64,000 nucleotides of DNA from an uncultured Bacteroidaceae bacterium (GTDB lineage: Bacteria > Bacteroidota > Bacteroidia > Bacteroidales > GCA-2748055), in NCBI GenBank assembly GCA_964526475.1, contig CAZGKF010000001.1, forward strand, positions 12,138 to 76,137. Reading direction: 5' to 3'. Numbering within the stretch: position 1 is the stretch's first letter; each line of letters begins with the position of its first letter. The position numbers were made by a program, and so were the translations under genes. Shown piece by piece: positions 16,374 through 57,312 of the stretch. Below the pieces are notes generated by a model. It was not told where the DNA came from. It made no database searches and saw only the letters and a list, made by a program, of their open reading frames with translations.

Positions 16374-17498
16374 GTGAAACATATTTATATTTCCGTAATC
16401 AACGATCTGTTAACAGATGCAAGAGCTCACCGCACCTGTTATACCCTTAGGAAATCAGGAGGAAGGATTATCCTCATTGGGAGAAAATTCAATAATAGCC
16501 CGAAGCTGGGGTTAAGAGATTATTATATCAGACGATTCCGCCTATTGGTGAATAAGGGTTTTTTGTTCTATTTATTATTTAATATCAGGCTATTTCTCTA
16601 TCTCATAAGCCGAAAAAAAATCGATATACTTATTTCCTGTGATCTGGATACTCTGCCTGCTAATTTTCTCGTGGCAAGATTAAGGAATTGTGTTCTGGTA
16701 TATGACAGCCACGAATATTTTACTGAAATCCCTGAACTTCAGGACAGACCGGTGATACGAAAAATATGGATGCTGATTGAAGCCTTTATAATACCTCATT
16801 TAAAATATGCATATACAGTAAGTGAAGCAATTGCCGGGGAATATTCCAATAAATACGGAGTCAAATTTGACATTATCAGGAACCTTCCCATGATAAAAAA
16901 AGCAGGTAATATTTATCCCTTACCGGAAAGTATTAAAACGAGAAAGAAAATTTTATACCAGGGAGCTTTGAATATGGGAAGGGGAATTGAAGAAATAATG
17001 GATGCAATAAAGTTAATGGATGAGGTGGTCTTATTAATCGCAGGTGATGGATATCTTCTCAAAGCACTAAAAAGGAAAACTATTGAAGAAGGCCTGAATG
17101 AAAAGGTGATTTTTACTGGCAGGCTTCCGCATGAGAAACTGCATGAACTTACCATCCAGGGAGATATCGGAATTTCGCTGGAACAAAATCTTGGTAAAAA
17201 TTACTTCTATGCACTCCCAAATAAAATATTTGATTACTTTCATGCCGGCATTCCCGTGTTAGTTTCAAATATGCCCGGTATGAAGGCGATTGTTGAAAAG
17301 TACGAGACCGGTATGGTAGCCGACTCTATGAACCCTGAAAATTTAAAGGAAAAGCTTGAGTTTATGCTTTACAATGAAGAAGCCAGGAGGAAATGGAAAA
17401 TAAATCTTGCTCTTGCAGCGGAAGAACTTAGCTGGGAAAAAGAAGAAATAAAACTTAAGGGAATATTTGAAAAAACCGGATTAACATTTTATGAGTAA
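16374..17498 (+). CDS. Glycosyltransferase family 4 (GT-B) protein
   Basis: The C-terminal half has the GT4 pattern (LIAGDG..., E.NLGKNYFYALPNKIFDYFHAGIPVLVS). GTG start. Confidence 0.8.
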   Translation: MKHIYISVINDLLTDARAHRTCYTLRKSGGRIILIGRKFNNSPKLGLRDYYIRRFRLLVNKGFLFYLLFNIRLFLYLISRKKIDILISCDLDTLPANFLVARLRNCVLVYDSHEYFTEIPELQDRPVIRKIWMLIEAFIIPHLKYAYTVSEAIAGEYSNKYGVKFDIIRNLPMIKKAGNIYPLPESIKTRKKILYQGALNMGRGIEEIMDAIKLMDEVVLLIAGDGYLLKALKRKTIEEGLNEKVIFTGRLPHEKLHELTIQGDIGISLEQNLGKNYFYALPNKIFDYFHAGIPVLVSNMPGMKAIVEKYETGMVADSMNPENLKEKLEFMLYNEEARRKWKINLALAAEELSWEKEEIKLKGIFEKTGLTFYE

Positions 17499-49151: not shown

Positions 49152-49934
49152 TTAATGAAATATTTCATCCAATATTTTTCCGATTTTCTCTTCCAGGCTA
49201 CCCTTCATGCCCAGAGCCTTAATAAATGCGCTCCCTATAATAGCACCATTGGCATACTTACTGGCTGTATCATATGTCTTCTTGTTGGAAATTCCAAAAC
49301 CGGCTATTACAGGATTTTTTAAATCCATTGAATGAATTCTGTGAAAATATTCTATCTGTTTCTCATCAAAATTTTTTCTGACTCCGGTTGTGGAAGATGT
49401 AGAAACCATATATATAAAGCCTTCCGAAATCCCATCAATATATCGTATCCTCTCCTGAGAGGTTTGGGGGGTGATAAGGCATATTAAATATATATTATAT
49501 TTTCTGAAAGTCTCCTGGTATTGTTCAAGATATACCTCTAAGGGGAGATCAGGGATGATCAATCCATCAATACCTGTTTCATAACACTTCCGGAGAAATT
49601 TTCCCATTCCCATGCGGTAAACAGGGTTTAAATAACCCATTAAAATAAGTGGTATGCTGATTTTATCGCGGATACCATTTAATTGCTTAAACAGTAAATC
49701 CAGATGCATGCCATTTTTTAATGCTACATTATTGCTGTATTGAATAATTGGACCATCAGCTACCGGATCAGAGAATGGAATACCAATTTCCACCAGATCA
49801 ATCCTGTTTTTTTCAAGAATATTAATAATCCTTGAAGTATCATTCAATGAAGGATATCCTGCAGTAAAATAAACAGAAAAAATGTTTTCTGTTTTTTCTG
49901 AAAAAAGCTTGCTTATCCTGTTCATCAGATTCAC
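49152..49934 (-). CDS. trpA: Tryptophan synthase alpha chain
   Basis: VEIGIPFSDPVADGPIIQ, and GFGIS near the C-terminus. Confidence 0.95.
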   Translation of the reverse strand: MNLMNRISKLFSEKTENIFSVYFTAGYPSLNDTSRIINILEKNRIDLVEIGIPFSDPVADGPIIQYSNNVALKNGMHLDLLFKQLNGIRDKISIPLILMGYLNPVYRMGMGKFLRKCYETGIDGLIIPDLPLEVYLEQYQETFRKYNIYLICLITPQTSQERIRYIDGISEGFIYMVSTSSTTGVRKNFDEKQIEYFHRIHSMDLKNPVIAGFGISNKKTYDTASKYANGAIIGSAFIKALGMKGSLEEKIGKILDEIFH

Positions 49935-49947
49935 TTATAAATATGAT

Positions 49948-51153
49948 TTATATATTACTGTTATCCATTACATTAAGATATGCAGACATATCTTTCTCCC
50001 CTCTTCCCGACAAACATACAACAACCAGATCATCCTTACCCGCATTTAATTTCTCAAGAAAAGCAAGGGCATGAGAGGTTTCCAGTGCAGGGATAATACC
50101 TTCGAGTCTTGCAAGCTTAAATGCTGCATCAAGAGCTTCCTGATCAGTTACGCTTACATACTTTGCTCTGCCGGTTTTTGCCAGCCAGGCATGGAAAGGT
50201 CCTACTCCGGGATAATCAAGCCCGGCTGAGATAGAATAAGGTTCGGTTATCTGACCATCATCATCCTGTAATAACAAAGTTTTGCTTCCATGAATAATCC
50301 CGGGGGATCCGGAACATATGGTGGCTGCAGTATTTCCGGTATCAATGCCCATGCCGGCTGCCTCAACACCAATCAGCTTAACATCTTCCCTGTCTAAATA
50401 ATGAAAAAAAATTCCGGCAGCATTACTTCCCCCTCCAACGCAGGCAAGAATATAATCAGGATCTTCTCTTCCCTCTTTTTCCCGGAGCTGAAATATTAAT
50501 TCAGCACTAATTACCGACTGGAATTTTGCCACAAGATCGGGGTAAGGATGAGGCCCTACAACAGAACCAATGATATAATAAGTGTCTTCAGGATTGCAAA
50601 TCCAATCCCGCATTGCTTCATTTGTAGCATCCTTAAGTGTTTTGTTTCCCGAACATGCTGCAATAACTTTAGCACCCAGCATTTCCATCCGTCGCACATT
50701 TGGTTCCTGTCGTTTCATATCCAGTTCACCCATATAAACGACACATTCTAATCCCATAAGTGCCGATACAGTAGCTGTGGCAACTCCATGCTGACCTGCT
50801 CCTGTTTCAGCAATAATACGGGTTTTCCCCATCCGTTTGGCTAAAAGTATCTGACCTATGGTGTTGTTTATTTTATGTGAACCAGTATGATTCAGGTCTT
50901 CCCTCTTAAGATAGACTCGCGTATTGAATATCTTGCTAAGTCTTTCTGCATAATACAGTGGTGAAGGTCTGCCCGCATAATCCCGAAGTAAGTTATGAAA
51001 TTCAGACTGAAAGCTTTCAGATTCGATAATGTAATAATAATTCTTCCTTAACTCTTCAACATTACTCCTTAACATCTCAGGTATATAGGCTCCCCCAAAA
51101 TCGCCATAATAACCTTTGCTATCCGACAGATAGCTTTTTTCAATAATACGCAT
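49948..51153 (-). CDS. trpB: Tryptophan synthase beta chain
   Basis: [17 protein letters not shown] (PLP Lys) and GGGSNAAG. Confidence 0.95.
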
Positions 51154-51214
51154 TCCTTTAATAATTTTAAATTAAAACTGCCGAATCAAATATTTAATAA
51201 GATAGTATTTGTTT

Positions 51215-51838
51215 TTACTTCCTGACAGATTTCATAAAAAGTTTAACTATTTCAGTATCTTTCAATCCTGCTGAAATTTCAAACCGGCTGTTAATATCTA
51301 CACCAGATAGGGACACTACAGATAATCCATTTATACTGGCTGAGTCTTCCGGACCAATTCCTCCACTAAGAAAAAACGGGTGTCCGAGATCATATTTTCT
51401 CAGCAAATTCCATTCAAATTTTCTTCCGGACCCACCATACTTTTCAGTTGGTGCATCGAAAAGGAAATAATCACAATAAGGAATATAAACAGACAGATCA
51501 TTAAAGTTGAATTCATCGTCAATTCTGAAAGCTTTGATAATCTTTACCCCGGAAGATTTCAATTCTCTGCATAGATCCGGACTCTCACTCCCGTGTAATT
51601 GCAGATAATCGAGTCCATATTTCCATTGTATCCCTGCAATCTCATACTCATCCTGATTTACAAAAACACCAGTCTTCTTTATTCTCTTAGGTATAACAGC
51701 CAGATCAGCTGGAGAAAGATAATTTCCAATATACCTTGGGGATACAGGATAAAAGTTAAAGCCTAAAAAGTCAGGTTTCAGTTTTACTAATTCCTGAAGG
51801 TTTTCTCTATATTTAATCCCACATATCTTAATCTTCAT
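51215..51838 (-). CDS. trpF: Phosphoribosylanthranilate isomerase
   Basis: MKIKICGI...D.LGFNFYP.SPRYI...LQLHG, in trp operon context. Confidence 0.9.
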   Translation of the reverse strand: MKIKICGIKYRENLQELVKLKPDFLGFNFYPVSPRYIGNYLSPADLAVIPKRIKKTGVFVNQDEYEIAGIQWKYGLDYLQLHGSESPDLCRELKSSGVKIIKAFRIDDEFNFNDLSVYIPYCDYFLFDAPTEKYGGSGRKFEWNLLRKYDLGHPFFLSGGIGPEDSASINGLSVVSLSGVDINSRFEISAGLKDTEIVKLFMKSVRK

Positions 51839-51960
51839 TTGTATATAAATATTTGGATTCAGGTATTATTCGATTAAAATTTCAACTAACTGATTTATTT
51901 ATTGACTGTTCATTAACAAATTAAATATTAATCACACAAGGCTTTTGTATCTACAAAAAA

Positions 51961-52764
51961 CTAATAAAGCTTCAATCTGATATTTTCACGCAAGTTGCAT
52001 ATAAAATCTTCGGCAGCTATCCATGGATTAATTGATTTCATAAAGTTTTCACCTATAAGGAAGGCCTGATAACCTGATTTATATAATTCCGTTGCAACAT
52101 TAATATCAGATATCCCGCTTTCTGCAACTTTGATACATTCTGAAGGTATTTTATCAACAAGTTGCAAGGATTTTCCGGTATTAATCTTAAAATTTCCCAG
52201 GTCTCTATTGTTTACACCGATTATTTGAATTCCGGGACACCATTTATCAAGATCGGATTCGTTATGAATTTCAAACAATAAATCTAAGTCAAATTCATTT
52301 GCAATAGCAGTAAAAGCTTTTATCTCACCGTGAGTAAGGATGGAAGCTATTAATAAAATACATGAAGCTCCAAATGCTTTTGATTCCAATATCTGGTATT
52401 CGTCAATAATGAAATCTTTTCTTAATAAAGGGAGTGAAGAATAACATGAAGCATCCTGAAGGTCGCAAAGACTACCTCCGAAAAAATCGCAATCAGTTAA
52501 CACTGAAATAGCATTTACCCCAGCATTTGTATAACCGGTAATGGTTTCATAAAGTCCGGAAGAATTATTTATTACTCCTTTTGAAGGAGACTTTCTTTTA
52601 AACTCAGCAATCACAGTTGGATAAGAGTTCACCAAAGAATCACTAAAAGATGCCCTTTTCATTCTGAAAGCCAGGGAGGACAGGTAAGATGCAGAAGGTA
52701 TCATGTTTTTACGTGAAGCAACTTCCTTCCTCTTTTTTCCAATAATCTCATCAAGAATTCTCAT
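51961..52764 (-). CDS. trpC: Indole-3-glycerol-phosphate synthase
   Basis: ILDEII..KR.EV, VIAEFKRKSPSKG, LRKDFIIDEYQI and IGVNNRDL. I prefer the start at MRILDEI. The ORF track extends to 52791. Confidence 0.9.
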   Translation of the reverse strand: MRILDEIIGKKRKEVASRKNMIPSASYLSSLAFRMKRASFSDSLVNSYPTVIAEFKRKSPSKGVINNSSGLYETITGYTNAGVNAISVLTDCDFFGGSLCDLQDASCYSSLPLLRKDFIIDEYQILESKAFGASCILLIASILTHGEIKAFTAIANEFDLDLLFEIHNESDLDKWCPGIQIIGVNNRDLGNFKINTGKSLQLVDKIPSECIKVAESGISDINVATELYKSGYQAFLIGENFMKSINPWIAAEDFICNLRENIRLKLY

Positions 52765-52837
52765 ACTATGTAATATTAATGGTTCTACCATGAATTAAAC
52801 AGAGCTGATTGGTATTCAGAACAGCTCTGTTATGGTC

Positions 52838-52875
52838 TTCTGTATTCTGTATCCTGCATTCTGTATTCTGTATTC
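52838..52875. repeat. Heptanucleotide tandem repeat (TTCTGTA x5, one variant unit) in the trpD-trpC spacer
   Basis: TTCTGTA TTCTGTA TCCTGCA TTCTGTA TTCTGTA TTC. A perfect 10-bp-stem hairpin follows at 52798-52831. Confidence 0.9.
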
Positions 52876-52897
52876 TTTTAATATTCTTCCATTAAAT

Positions 52898-53893
52898 TTA
52901 TGGTACAACCATATTAATTAATTTTTTAAACGTATAATATGCTTTCCCACTCAAAAGTGAATCTTCGGCCTGAAGAACACTCTCTTCTATGGAATTTCCC
53001 CGAATACACCTTAAGGCCATTGCAGCATTAATAATAACCACAGAATTCCATGCCCGGGTTCCTTTTCCTTTCAGTATTTTTAAAAAAACTTCTGCCGATT
53101 CTTCCACGCTACTACCTCCGGATATATTTTGTTGAGTAAGTTGTGAAAATCCAATCTTTTCAGGTGAAAACAATTGCTCTTCGTGATTGGAGATAACTTT
53201 AAATTCTGAAGTTAAGGAAATTTCGTCATATCCATCGAGGGAATATACTATGGAATAATTTTTATCTGTTCCCTGAAAAATATAATTAAAAAGCCTTGCT
53301 GTTTCAAGGTTGAATACACCAGTGAACTGATTCTTCGGAAATGATGGATTTACAAGAGGCCCCAGCATATTGAAGAATGTTTTAACTCCCAGTTCCTTTC
53401 TAACAGATGCTACAGATTTCATAGCAGGATGGAATAGTGGAGCATGCAGAAAACATATACCTGATTTCTCTATTTGCCTTAAAAGAACATCACGTTTATT
53501 GGTAAATTTATATCCGTAATATTCCATAATGTTACTTGAACCGCATAATGAGGATACCCCATAATTACCATGCTTGGCAACTTTCTCACCCGCACCTGCT
53601 ACAATAAAGGAAGCAAGGGTTGAAATATTAAAAGTATGTTTTCCGTCTCCACCGGTACCACAAAGATCAATTGTATTAAAATCAGAAAGATCTGTTCTCA
53701 GGCATAGATCAAGCAAAGCCTCCCTGAAACCTGAAAGTTCTTCCACGGTTATGGGTCTCATCATAAAAACTGTGAGAAAAGCAGCAACCTCTGCATAAGT
53801 GTATTCAGAACGTGCTATACGTGTAAGAATATCCCTTGCTGAAACCTTTGTCAGAAATTCATGCGCAGTAAGCTTTTGTAAGACTTCTTTCAT
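52898..53893 (-). CDS. trpD: Anthranilate phosphoribosyltransferase
   Basis: DLCGTGGDGKHTFNIST and KHGN motifs. Confidence 0.95.
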   Translation of the reverse strand: MKEVLQKLTAHEFLTKVSARDILTRIARSEYTYAEVAAFLTVFMMRPITVEELSGFREALLDLCLRTDLSDFNTIDLCGTGGDGKHTFNISTLASFIVAGAGEKVAKHGNYGVSSLCGSSNIMEYYGYKFTNKRDVLLRQIEKSGICFLHAPLFHPAMKSVASVRKELGVKTFFNMLGPLVNPSFPKNQFTGVFNLETARLFNYIFQGTDKNYSIVYSLDGYDEISLTSEFKVISNHEEQLFSPEKIGFSQLTQQNISGGSSVEESAEVFLKILKGKGTRAWNSVVIINAAMALRCIRGNSIEESVLQAEDSLLSGKAYYTFKKLINMVVP

Positions 53894-53931
53894 AATAATT
53901 ACAATGTTTATACGAATAATACCATTTGTAC

Positions 53932-54501
53932 TTATATATTTAACCAGTTAGCAATCATTTGTTTTCCATAACGTGTAAGAACAGACTCCGGATGAAACTG
54001 TACACCTTTAAGATCATACTCCAGATGACTGACTGCCATGATCACGTCATTTTCATCCCGGGCAGTTATTTTAATAACCTCAGGAAGAGTATCTTCCCTG
54101 ATAACCCAGGAATGATATCTCCCGGCAGTAAAATGTTCAGGAATTCCTCTGAAAGTTCTTTCATTCAAATCACAAACTTTCATATAAGTTGTAACTCCAT
54201 GATAAACTGAGCTTAAGTTGAGAAGGCTGCCTCCATAAACCTCTGCAATAGCCTGACAACCGAGGCAAACACCTAAGATACTCTTAAAGGGTGCGAACTC
54301 CCTTATAAGAGTTTTAGTTATACCCGCATCTGAGGGAACTCCGGGACCCGGAGAAATTAGAATTTTATCATATTCTGATATTTCTTCCAGCTTTATTTCA
54401 TCATTTCTGTAAACATCCACCGGCAGAAGAGTAAGCTCCTTGAGGTAATGTACCAGATTATAAGTGAAAGAATCGTAATTATCCAATACCATTATCTTCA
54501 T
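53932..54501 (-). CDS. trpG: Anthranilate synthase component II (glutamine amidotransferase)
   Basis: MKIMVLDNYDSFTYNLV, GVCLGCQ (catalytic Cys) and GVQFHPES. The start at 54501 avoids overlapping the end of trpE. Confidence 0.95.
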   Translation of the reverse strand: MKIMVLDNYDSFTYNLVHYLKELTLLPVDVYRNDEIKLEEISEYDKILISPGPGVPSDAGITKTLIREFAPFKSILGVCLGCQAIAEVYGGSLLNLSSVYHGVTTYMKVCDLNERTFRGIPEHFTAGRYHSWVIREDTLPEVIKITARDENDVIMAVSHLEYDLKGVQFHPESVLTRYGKQMIANWLNI

Positions 54502-54514
54502 ACATTTGCATTTT

Positions 54515-55936
54515 TTATATGTCTGAAGCATTCTCAATAGCCTGCTTCAGAGCACCCAGTTTATTATTAACTTCATTAAGTTCGTTATCTTCAGCAGAGG
54601 CAGCTACTATACCCGCTCCTGCCTGATAATAAAGAGTGTTATCCTTACTCAGAAATGATCGTATCATTATTGCATGATTAATGCTTCCATCGAATCCGAA
54701 ACATCCAATTGCTCCTCCATAATAACCGCGATTCCTGTTCTCATATTGATCAATCAGTTGCATTGCTTTAAACTTTGGGGCACCGGAAAGAGTTCCTGCA
54801 GGAAAAGAGTCTCCAAATACCTTCACCGGATTAAAACCCTTCCTTAATTCACCGGTTACCTCAGAAACGAGATGAATAACATGGGAGTAATATTGTACTT
54901 CCCTGAAGGTTTTTACATGTACCTTATCAGAATTCTTGCTGAGATCATTTCTCGCAAGATCAACAAGCATAACATGTTCCGCATTTTCTTTCTGATCGTT
55001 AGTAAGCTCAAAAGCAAGCTGTTTGTCGTTCTCATCATTACCTGTTCTGCGAAATGTGCCGGCAATCGGGTTAATAATAGCCAGTCCATCTTCAATTCTA
55101 AGCTGTGCCTCCGGTGAGGATCCGAAAAGCTTATAACCACCGTAATCAAAATAAAACAGGTAAGGGGAGGGATTGATACCCCGAAGCGCTCTGTATACAT
55201 TAAATTCATCTCCTTTGAAGGCTTGCCTGTATTGTCTGGAAAGCACTATCTGAAAAACATCACCCAGGGAACAGTGCTTCTTTCCAAGCCTGACAAGCTC
55301 TTTATATTCTTCATCAGTAATATTCGAACTCTCCTCATGAAATGGCTGGAAAGTAAAAGAACCAATTTTTCGATTGGTAAGAAGTACCTGAACCTCATTC
55401 ATCCTGCTACTTTCTCCTTCAGGAATATTTTCAAGGAGGTACATTTTGTTACTGAAATGGTTTATCCCCAGGATAAAACGGTAAAGCGCATAATGGATAT
55501 CGGGTATCCTGCATTCGGGACTAACTGGTTTATGAAGTTCAATATCCTCAAAATAACGTACTGCATCATAAGAGGTATATCCAAATAATCCATTGGTTTT
55601 CATTTCATTTGCAACTTCCTTATTATCGATCAGAAACGATCTTAAAAAATTAGCAAGAACATCAGAAAAAGTGTTTTTGTTTTTTATTATATATTCTTCC
55701 TTCTTTCCGCCTGGGAAAGTTATGTGTATATTCCCCATTTCAGCTCTTATAGTAGAGATCACCTCGAAACAAATATAGGTCATACTATTCCGGTTCCCAT
55801 GATAATCAGAGCTTTCCAGCAGTATTGCATTGGGATACTGGTCTCTTATTTTAAGATAAATACTTACAGGAGTTATAAGGTCGGCAACCCCCGGAGGAAA
55901 TGAATTTATTTTTATATGCAAATTTGTTTTCTTCAT
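54515..55936 (-). CDS. trpE: Anthranilate synthase component I
   Basis: LLESSDYHG, NPSPYLFYFD, GAGIVA.S, and GTLSGAPK.AM. Confidence 0.95.
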   Translation of the reverse strand: MKKTNLHIKINSFPPGVADLITPVSIYLKIRDQYPNAILLESSDYHGNRNSMTYICFEVISTIRAEMGNIHITFPGGKKEEYIIKNKNTFSDVLANFLRSFLIDNKEVANEMKTNGLFGYTSYDAVRYFEDIELHKPVSPECRIPDIHYALYRFILGINHFSNKMYLLENIPEGESSRMNEVQVLLTNRKIGSFTFQPFHEESSNITDEEYKELVRLGKKHCSLGDVFQIVLSRQYRQAFKGDEFNVYRALRGINPSPYLFYFDYGGYKLFGSSPEAQLRIEDGLAIINPIAGTFRRTGNDENDKQLAFELTNDQKENAEHVMLVDLARNDLSKNSDKVHVKTFREVQYYSHVIHLVSEVTGELRKGFNPVKVFGDSFPAGTLSGAPKFKAMQLIDQYENRNRGYYGGAIGCFGFDGSINHAIMIRSFLSKDNTLYYQAGAGIVAASAEDNELNEVNNKLGALKQAIENASDI

Positions 55937-55951
55937 AGCATTAGTTTAAAT

Positions 55952-55983
55952 AAAAAAAAAAGCCTGCCGGGAATCCGACAGGC
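55952..55983 (-). terminator. Intrinsic terminator of the trp attenuator, 15 nt upstream of the trpE ATG
   Basis: The minus strand reads GCCUGUCGG-AUUC-CCGGCAGGC followed by U10. The stem is 9 bp including one G-U pair. Confidence 0.8.
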
Positions 55984-56025
55984 CGCTGAAATATCTATGG
56001 TTAATTTTAAGTCATGGCAATACTG

Positions 56026-56082
56026 TCACCCGGAAATAAGGTAATTCAACTGCCACCACCAAATATTAATAAAACCTTTCAT
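56026..56082 (-). CDS. trpL: trp operon leader peptide (18 aa, MKGFINIWWWQLNYLISG)
   Basis: ATG at 56082 and TGA at 56028-56026. Three consecutive TGG codons occupy 56061-56053. The terminator lies 42 nt downstream of the stop codon. Confidence 0.75.
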   Translation of the reverse strand: MKGFINIWWWQLNYLISG

Positions 56083-56235
56083 TGAGTAATTGATCTGATG
56101 CAAAAATAATACTTTTTTTAATACAGTGATTATATACCATATTTTTTTTTCCTGTCAGAAGAAATAATTTATTAAAGCTTCGCATATACTCAACTTGTCA
56201 AATAATGAGAAAGAAACTTTAAAGTAACACTTTTG

Positions 56236-57312
56236 TCATTCCATCAATGAAATAATGATCTTTTCCATCAGGCTGTGGTTCTCATAAATTCGGTTCATGA
56301 GAGTAAGCTGTGCCCTGGTTCTGTATAAATTATGATCAGGGTAAGAGATATGGTAATATTTATCATTCTCAAGATAATCAGTCAGAAACCTCACTGCTTG
56401 CTGACATGTAATAAAAAACGGCGCAAGATAAAGAGTTTCAACTTCTAATTTACTTATAAATAATGAAACAGCTTTCATATACCCTTTGGTATAACTTTCA
56501 AAAGCCGGGAAGTTAAATTGAATAAGACTTGTATCCTTTTCATCTTCCTTAGCAGTATTTGCAAATGTGCGCATTGAATCCCCAAAATCTGAATGAAGAA
56601 TACCTGTCATGACCGTATCAAGATCAATAACAGAAATAGCCTTCCCCTCCTGATTTAATAAAATATTACTCATTTTAGCATCATGATGAGCTATTCTTTT
56701 GGGAAGGATTTCCTTACGTATCAGTTTTTGTAATTCCTCTGTTTTCATAATACCATTTGAAGCTGCATCAACTTCTGCAGACGCTGATTTAAGCCGGTCA
56801 GGATTTCCTTCTTTAATGGATTTAAGAAAATTATCATGTCGAAAATCCATATCATGAAAATGTGGGATAGTTTCATTCAGAGGTTTCCCGGTCAGATCAG
56901 ACAACATATGTACAAACTTTCCATATGCACTGCCAGCTTCAAATACTTTCGGGAGAGAAGGAGGATTTTCTCTCAGTGGTTCGTGGGGAATATAATTAAA
57001 CATTCTCCAATATTTCTCCTTATACAAAAAACAACTCTGATTGTCACTAGTCATAATCAACCTCATGGGTATCCATTCAGGCAGATCCTGTTTAATTTTC
57101 TTTTCCAAATGATCGCATAACCTTACAATATTTTCCATCAAACCTTTTACATCCCTGAAAACATGATGGTTTATTTGCTGGAGAATAAATGTATTATCGG
57201 TACATTCAACAATATAAGTGGAATGAATATGACCTGATTCAATTTGCTTCACCGAATTTACCTGGGAAGATAACCGGAAATTCCTTAGGATTCTATAAAT
57301 ATCATTTTCCAT
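56236..57312 (-). CDS. Aminoglycoside-phosphotransferase-fold kinase (probable sugar anomeric kinase)
   Basis: Protein-kinase-like/APH pattern: HIHSTYIV, then IAHHDAKMSNILL...VIDLDT (Brenner and DxD-type motifs). Confidence 0.7.
   Translation of the reverse strand: MENDIYRILRNFRLSSQVNSVKQIESGHIHSTYIVECTDNTFILQQINHHVFRDVKGLMENIVRLCDHLEKKIKQDLPEWIPMRLIMTSDNQSCFLYKEKYWRMFNYIPHEPLRENPPSLPKVFEAGSAYGKFVHMLSDLTGKPLNETIPHFHDMDFRHDNFLKSIKEGNPDRLKSASAEVDAASNGIMKTEELQKLIRKEILPKRIAHHDAKMSNILLNQEGKAISVIDLDTVMTGILHSDFGDSMRTFANTAKEDEKDTSLIQFNFPAFESYTKGYMKAVSLFISKLEVETLYLAPFFITCQQAVRFLTDYLENDKYYHISYPDHNLYRTRAQLTLMNRIYENHSLMEKIIISLME

Follow-up and report, generated by a model that had tools for sequence, protein, structure and literature searches.

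The region preceding the trpEGDCFBA operon in the window (i.e., the whole analysed stretch of 64,000 nucleotides of an uncultured Bacteroidales genome) very probably acts as a functional, tryptophan-sensing, ribosome-mediated leader-peptide attenuator, as judged from its sequence and from comparison with relatives. These analyses support the presence of all parts of a four-segment attenuator, each of which appears either conserved or co-varying in related loci, and from this we infer leader translation, ribosome stalling and the Trp-dependence of termination. The components of the region are given below in the order of transcription, with the source of each assignment in brackets.

56101 to 56108, minus strand: candidate -7 promoter box TATTTTTG, of the form TAnnTTTG (inferred from sequence)
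56026 to 56082, minus strand: leader peptide ORF of 18 codons, encoding the peptide MKGFINIWWWQLNYLISG and ending in a TGA stop (sequence)
56039 to 56069, minus strand: segment 1, the 5' strand of an interrupted 1:2 hairpin (anti-antiterminator), which holds the UGG codons (minimum free energy, MFE, fold)
56053 to 56061, minus strand: UGG UGG UGG, the proposed ribosome-stall or sensing site (sequence and alignment)
56016 to 56033, minus strand: segment 2, CCGGGUGACAG-UAUU-GCC, with the leader stop codon (56028-56026) inside (RNAduplex)
55961 to 55984, minus strand: segments 3 and 4, intrinsic terminator stem-loop GGCCUGUCGG-AUUC-CCGGCAGGCU (terminator scan)
55952 to 55961, minus strand: T10 (U10) tract of the terminator (sequence and scan)
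54515 to 55936, minus strand: trpE, encoding the 473-aa component I of anthranilate synthase and first among the regulated genes (Pfam Chorismate_bind at 1.1e-75, plus Anth_synt_I_N)
49152 to 54537, minus strand: trpG, trpD, trpC, trpF, trpB and trpA (Pfam GATase, Glycos_transf_3, IGPS, PRAI, PALP and Trp_syntA)

Re-reading of the sequence confirmed every coordinate that the first-pass annotation had assigned to the minus strand. The leader ORF opens with the ATG at 56082 and closes with the TGA at 56028-56026, and its codons read atg aaa ggt ttt att aat att TGG TGG TGG cag ttg aat tac ctt att tcc ggg TGA. The three TGG codons within an 18-codon ORF, the 42 nt separating its stop from a 9-bp hairpin followed by U10, and the 15 nt between the T10 run and the trpE ATG (55936) are all as that annotation had described them. 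The core hairpin GCCUGUCGG/CCGGCAGGC (9 bp, 55983-55962) is extended by a closing G.U pair to 10 bp (55984-55961), with 7 G-C pairs and the loop AUUC according to the scanner, and the gap from the leader stop is 41 nt when measured to this longer form. The earlier assignment of the operon also held, all seven genes from 55936 to 49152 being identified by Pfam, and trpB was additionally recognized by NCBIfam TIGR00263 (585.8 bits).

TAnnTTTG is the Bacteroidota-type -7 motif. The TATTTTTG box was present where the first-pass annotation had placed it, with the G of its TTTG 18 nt before the leader ATG, and related loci displayed a comparable spacing (18 nt in L001 and L003, 19 nt in L006, and a mode of 18-21 nt over 66 loci). 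As previously stated, no TTTG occurs in the -33 zone of the window leader. Judging from the -7 box, transcription probably starts near 56095. Further upstream of this box, the arrangement CTGACA-18-TATAAT (56158-56129, minus strand) matches 11 of 12 sigma-70-like positions; since promoters of the sigma-70 consensus type are unusual in Bacteroidota, it is probably a chance or composition effect in A+T-rich DNA.

Conservation of the leader was assessed in 80 trpE loci from Bacteroidota, including Bacteroidales, Marinilabiliales-like, Flavobacteriales, Cytophagales, Chitinophagales and Sphingobacteriales, whose TrpE proteins share at most 73% identity with that of the window and align with it from residue 1, the closest being those of Bacteroidales MAGs. 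The count was limited to the 77 loci whose trpE is preceded by 400 nt or more of sequence and to ORFs started by ATG and containing WWW or WWWW; such a mini-ORF was found within this stretch in 67 of these 77, so that the comparison of upstream regions proposed by the first-pass annotation came out in favour of a maintained leader. The corresponding controls were all zero (opposite strand, 0; shuffled sequences, 0/1540; the -900 to -500 region, 0). In alignment A1 (n = 32 sequences) the three Trp-codon columns were invariant, and in most loci a G+C-rich hairpin with a T-run was located 19-49 nt past the leader stop. Furthermore, both strands of the 3.24-Mb assembly were scanned for short ORFs (8-40 codons, ATG start) with WWW in the peptide and a terminator behind them. 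Exactly two were recovered, and both precede Trp-synthesis genes, namely trpE and a TrpB-like gene. Considering that TGGTGGTGG alone occurs 31 times in this genome, its joint occurrence with a mini-ORF and a terminator marks Trp-synthesis genes with high specificity.

These observations bear on the proposal that the hairpin and its T10 tract simply end transcription of the upstream APH-family gene (56236-57312) in a constitutive manner or act as an insulator, and that the WWW ORF is fortuitous or non-regulatory. A scan found no further terminator between 56236 and the trp leader, as would be expected if that gene relied on this one. However, a conserved promoter-like box and the leader ORF both precede the terminator, a WWW ORF with a terminator precedes trpE in many families while the controls are zero, and the same layout is found before the TrpB-like gene on another contig. 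Conservation thus appears to have largely refuted a constitutive terminator already, and we regard it as very improbable.

Beyond the Trp codons, other features of the leaders were observed. In most Bacteroidales-like leaders, the Trp run is succeeded by a CAN codon, for Gln or His (A1 columns 31-42, corresponding to 56061-56050 of the window), and UGGUGGUGGCA, which derives from the Trp run and the CAN codon, is nearly invariant in A1. The GGCA of this stretch pairs with the UGCC/GCC of segment 2; the apparent conservation of the peptide here probably reflects a constraint on RNA structure rather than selection on the peptide. In addition, tandem Trp leaders, i.e., two successive WWW mini-ORFs before one trpE, were found in some Cytophagales (Fulvivirga), Prolixibacteraceae and Bacteroidales (L074:328-516; L077:1184-1421; L024:1172-1369; L094, G028:C37, 121-340). 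According to the terminator scanner, a terminator follows both ORFs in L077 and L094, and the first ORF alone in L074 and L024.

Regarding RNA structure, folding of 56095-55940, which the first-pass annotation had suggested together with a search for alternative structures, gave -44.2 kcal/mol (z = -4.0), with none of 200 shuffled sequences as stable. In the naked RNA, the MFE structure includes a hairpin spanning 56069-56001, where GUGGCAGU pairs with AUUGCCAU and UUACCU with GGGUGA, plus flanking pairs; this is the interrupted 1:2 helix. The duplex between segments 1 and 2 reached -17.8 kcal/mol (z = -2.3) and was better than 98% of those with non-cognate partners. When column-wise covariation of the 1:2 helix was analysed in the register of the window on the MAFFT alignment A1, it was not above shuffled or slid controls; the 3' arm is full of indels, due to which A1 is not register-true in this region, and alignment-free duplex tests were used for this reason. 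These tests gave a mean z of -1.63 across loci and a cognate advantage of 2.3 kcal/mol (p = 5e-4), a moderate support that fits the wording "a loosely conserved hairpin" originally used for this class of leaders. RNAalifold on A1 recovered the terminator alone, with compensatory changes in 7 of 12 pairs (n = 32 relatives).

The competing 2:3 antiterminator was also defined in the window. The first-pass annotation had pointed out that CCGGGUGACAG (56033-56023), which straddles the leader stop, is complementary to CUGUC...CCCGG; this pairing proved correct and longer than described, with UGACAG/CUGUCG and GCC/GGC alongside CCGGG/CCCGG, for a total of 14 bp. It takes up the entire 5' arm of the terminator, the last base of the loop and four bases at the start of the 3' arm; terminator positions 55984-55967 thus double as the antiterminator 3' strand. 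Its stability as estimated with RNAduplex was -19.2 kcal/mol (z = -3.86), with none of 200 shuffles as stable. AUUGCCAU was also considered alone as the antiterminator strand and was rejected, as it pairs with the terminator 5' arm by GCC/GGC (3 bp) only; the true strand begins upstream of it, at CCGGG.

The antiterminator was further evaluated in 64 distinct loci, where the region from 10 nt past the last Trp codon up to the terminator was confronted with a target comprising the terminator 5' arm, the loop and the first 4 nt of the 3' arm. Pairing was better than in shuffled sequences, with a mean z of -2.2 and values below -1.64 in 43 of the 64, and in approximately 60 of them a ribosome positioned on the leader stop would cover at least part of the antiterminator 5' strand. 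Cognate leader-terminator pairs were 3.5 kcal/mol more stable than non-cognate ones, for which dissimilar terminators from other lineages served as partners (Wilcoxon p = 1.5e-9, with loci that are not phylogenetically independent). For instance, the window leader gave -19.2 kcal/mol with its own terminator versus a mean of -11.9 with non-cognate terminators, and none of 52 was as good. The partners co-vary between lineages, being CCGGG/CCCGG in the window, GUCGUGAG/CUCACGAC in L081, AUCGUGAA/UUCACGAU in L082, GCCGGAG/CUUCGGC in L112 and CCGUGAACAGC/GCUGUUCACG in L031. On A1, the exact antiterminator pairs of the window were paired in 64%, versus 29-44% in slid registers.

Masked folding indicated under which ribosome positions each structure is predicted. 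With the third UGG in the A site, the antiterminator was the MFE structure of the nascent RNA up to 55966, with -10.4 kcal/mol once the 5' arm was out and -17.8 kcal/mol once CCCGG was out; when the full 3' arm was present, the terminator reached -23.2 kcal/mol versus about -17.8 for the antiterminator. With the ribosome on the UGA, segment 2 was covered and the terminator remained intact. Since the terminator is favoured at full length, read-through must be kinetic, which is assumed to occur as in E. coli trpL.

That same energetic preference would also fit a scenario where the leader ORF and the terminator regulate the operon by means other than a 2:3 antiterminator hairpin, whether because a stalled or absent ribosome sets Rho access or mRNA stability, or because translation of the leader mainly affects the initiation of trpE translation. 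The end of the T-run only 15 nt from the trpE start, as well as the 21 of 64 loci with z above -1.64 (i.e., without significant antiterminator complementarity), are in line with such a scenario. Nevertheless, the complementarity between antiterminator and terminator co-varies between lineages, in about 60 of the 64 loci the antiterminator strand is found at the leader stop and, with respect to the Rho variant, a strong intrinsic terminator with U10 requires no Rho. We therefore consider this scenario, all of its variants taken jointly, improbable, and favour attenuation through the 2:3 pairing.

The proposed attenuation would operate as follows. Transcription starting near 56095, from the candidate TAnnTTTG-type promoter, would yield an RNA whose first AUG (56082) opens the 18-codon ORF. 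Under a shortage of charged tRNA-Trp, the ribosome would stall at 56061-56053 and cover segment 1, leaving segment 2 (56033-56016) free to pair with the emerging 5' arm of the terminator; this pairing would extend to the loop and the first bases of the 3' arm, up to 14 bp in total, so that the terminator hairpin could not nucleate and RNA polymerase would enter trpE. When tryptophan is plentiful, the ribosome would reach the UGA within segment 2 and mask this segment, the 10-bp hairpin with U10 would form, and transcription would end at about 55952. If the leader is not translated, segments 1 and 2 would pair together, which would again lead to termination.

Tryptophan could instead be sensed by a trans-acting factor on the leader RNA, in the manner of TRAP, of a T-box recognizing tRNA or of a Trp riboswitch, the UGG repeat being in that case a binding motif; the strong conservation of the UGG run and the flanking GGCA at the RNA level would agree with this. 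On the other hand, an Rfam search with E values up to 10 returned no T-box or other riboswitch match in the region, TRAP (PF02081) is absent from the genome, and the UGG run is always in frame within a short ATG-started ORF that ends near segment 2, which is a signature of translation-based sensing. A trans-acting sensor is consequently the least probable of the explanations considered here, and a very remote one, and sensing by the translating ribosome remains the preferred reading.

Comparison with known RNA families placed the element, as a divergent member, in an already described class. The best Rfam match of the window was RF01692 (Bacteroid-trp, "Bacteroidete tryptophan peptide leader RNA"), at 55977-56106; this match extends over the full 131 positions of the model and places the leader UGG codons on the UGGuGGUGg consensus of the family. 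Its score of 30.5 bits (E = 0.23-0.26) is lower than the gathering cut-off of 49 bits, which is an operational threshold and not a biological one. The same interval was the top RF01692 match of the 3.24-Mb genome (G000:C1:68114-68243, minus strand), where a single other match was obtained (22.1 bits, E = 9). In terms of its match to the model, the window element is a divergent homologue of RF01692 and not a certified member of the Rfam family. The first-pass annotation, in recognizing the classical trp attenuation logic, was right about the four-segment anatomy, with which the relatives agree, and overlooked that the family was already known.

The RF01692 search was carried out in the genome of the window and 40 relatives from its genus, family and order (G000-G040), and none of the 41 genomes reached the cut-off, the best score being 48.5 bits; the Bacteroides thetaiotaomicron control did reach it. 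Direct scanning of 16 trpE loci gave 43.4, 40.8 and 40.5 bits as the best scores. From 33 RF01692 regions that were fetched, 26 contained a mini-ORF with at least two consecutive Trp codons, and a terminator was detected in 24 of these. As no genome was above the cut-off although most carry the leader ORF and the terminator, the current RF01692 model under-detects this element; with the relatives all below the cut-off, standard Rfam annotation would miss it, and the seed of the family appears too narrow to represent the order. Other Rfam matches of the window, such as MicC, L10_leader, PyrR and similar ones (15-19 bits), correspond to the terminator hairpin only and were discarded as noise, and the E. 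coli-type Trp_leader (RF00513) gave no match in the region with E up to 10.

Bacteroid-trp was described by Weinberg et al. (2010); the entry in the supplement (PMC2864571) locates the motif in the 5' region of trpE or trpB and defines it by a short ORF with at least two UGG codons and "a loosely conserved hairpin". The window element shares with RF01692 the Bacteroidota phylum, the location upstream of trpE, with a second genomic copy upstream of a trpB-like gene, the short ORF with two or more UGG codons, the hairpin whose 5' arm carries these codons, and the subsequent start of the terminator (GGCYUGUC). In contrast to our model, that of RF01692 ends at the terminator 5' arm, and an antiterminator or 2:3 pairing is described neither in the RF01692 model nor in the supplementary note of PMC2864571, as far as its entry on this motif goes.

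Other leaders were observed in the same genome. A second Trp leader, MKNISSIQSRWWWWLLKI, located at G000:C13:41127-41300 (plus strand), has the terminator AGGCAGGTTG-TTTA-CGACCTGCTT with a T-run 48 nt further on; it lies approximately 60 nt upstream of a 455-aa TrpB-like PLP enzyme (NF009057, 734 bits), and RF01692 reports nothing at this leader with E up to 10. Leaders of this same kind, with ..TYTRWWWH.. and the terminator GGCAGGTTG/CGACCTGCC, recur in the relatives G004, G020 and G010 (L099, L085 and L098, respectively), the Trp run of L098 being interrupted as C-W-L-W. Further, a candidate His leader, MKVITARFYIRPHHHMMSD, was detected on the minus strand of contig C32 (reverse-strand position 16967), followed after 39 nt by the terminator AAGGTTTGCA-AAATAC-TGCAAACCTT with a T-run; hisG (TIGR00070, 184.8 bits) is directly downstream, beginning at 17107, and the ORFs next to it look like hisD, hisC and hisB when judged by eye. 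With a His leader before hisG beside the Trp leaders, this genome appears to employ leader-peptide attenuation in at least two amino-acid pathways. We consider it likely that the three leaders (that of trpE, the WWWW leader before the TrpB-like gene and the His leader before hisG) constitute, in the Bacteroidales lineage to which this genome belongs, a coherent, ribosome-sensed set that is missed entirely by current Rfam models, with an antiterminator around the leader stop that pairs with the terminator loop and the upper 3' arm.

The system resembles E. coli trpL (RF00513, Yanofsky) in its four-segment logic, with the Trp codons placed in segment 1 and the leader stop at or within segment 2, a 2:3 pairing weaker than the 3:4 pairing with kinetic competition between them, and an intrinsic terminator with a U-run just before trpE. 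It differs from trpL in that no sequence homology is detectable, in having three Trp codons instead of two, and in being known from computation only. Outside Proteobacteria, control of trpE through termination and a leader peptide rich in consecutive Trp codons is likewise found in Actinobacteria; these leaders belong to another phylum, are unrelated in sequence and, unlike the window system, have some experimental support, in Corynebacterium glutamicum and Streptomyces venezuelae (cited in PMC4833913). With Bacillus subtilis, the window system shares the choice between terminator and antiterminator in a trp leader, whereas the sensor of B. subtilis is the TRAP protein or uncharged tRNA and not the translating ribosome. 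For Bacteroidota, our literature search found no experimental test of trp attenuation, and the mentions of Bacteroid-trp it returned were in silico only; a 2019 paper refers to the motif as "identified in silico", and a B. thetaiotaomicron transcriptome paper refers to sORFs "reminiscent of leader peptides" with no mention of trp. The opinion of the first-pass annotation that evidence outside Proteobacteria is mostly computational thus stands for Bacteroidota and does not stand overall, given the actinobacterial cases.

Knowledge of the regulation of the trp operon itself is left unchanged by these findings; the class is known and still computational only. The trp operon of an uncultured Bacteroidales genome can now be given a regulatory annotation with confidence, a testable 1:2, 2:3 and 3:4 model becomes available for a class so far characterized by a loosely conserved hairpin and its Trp codons, and the seed alignment of RF01692 could usefully be extended. 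If the element is shown to respond to tryptophan, it would represent, as far as we have found, the first experimental case of classical leader-peptide attenuation in Bacteroidota. Translation in this phylum is initiated largely without Shine-Dalgarno sequences; if the proposed mechanism is true, a tight coupling between transcription and translation would be implied in a phylum where Shine-Dalgarno initiation is mostly missing.
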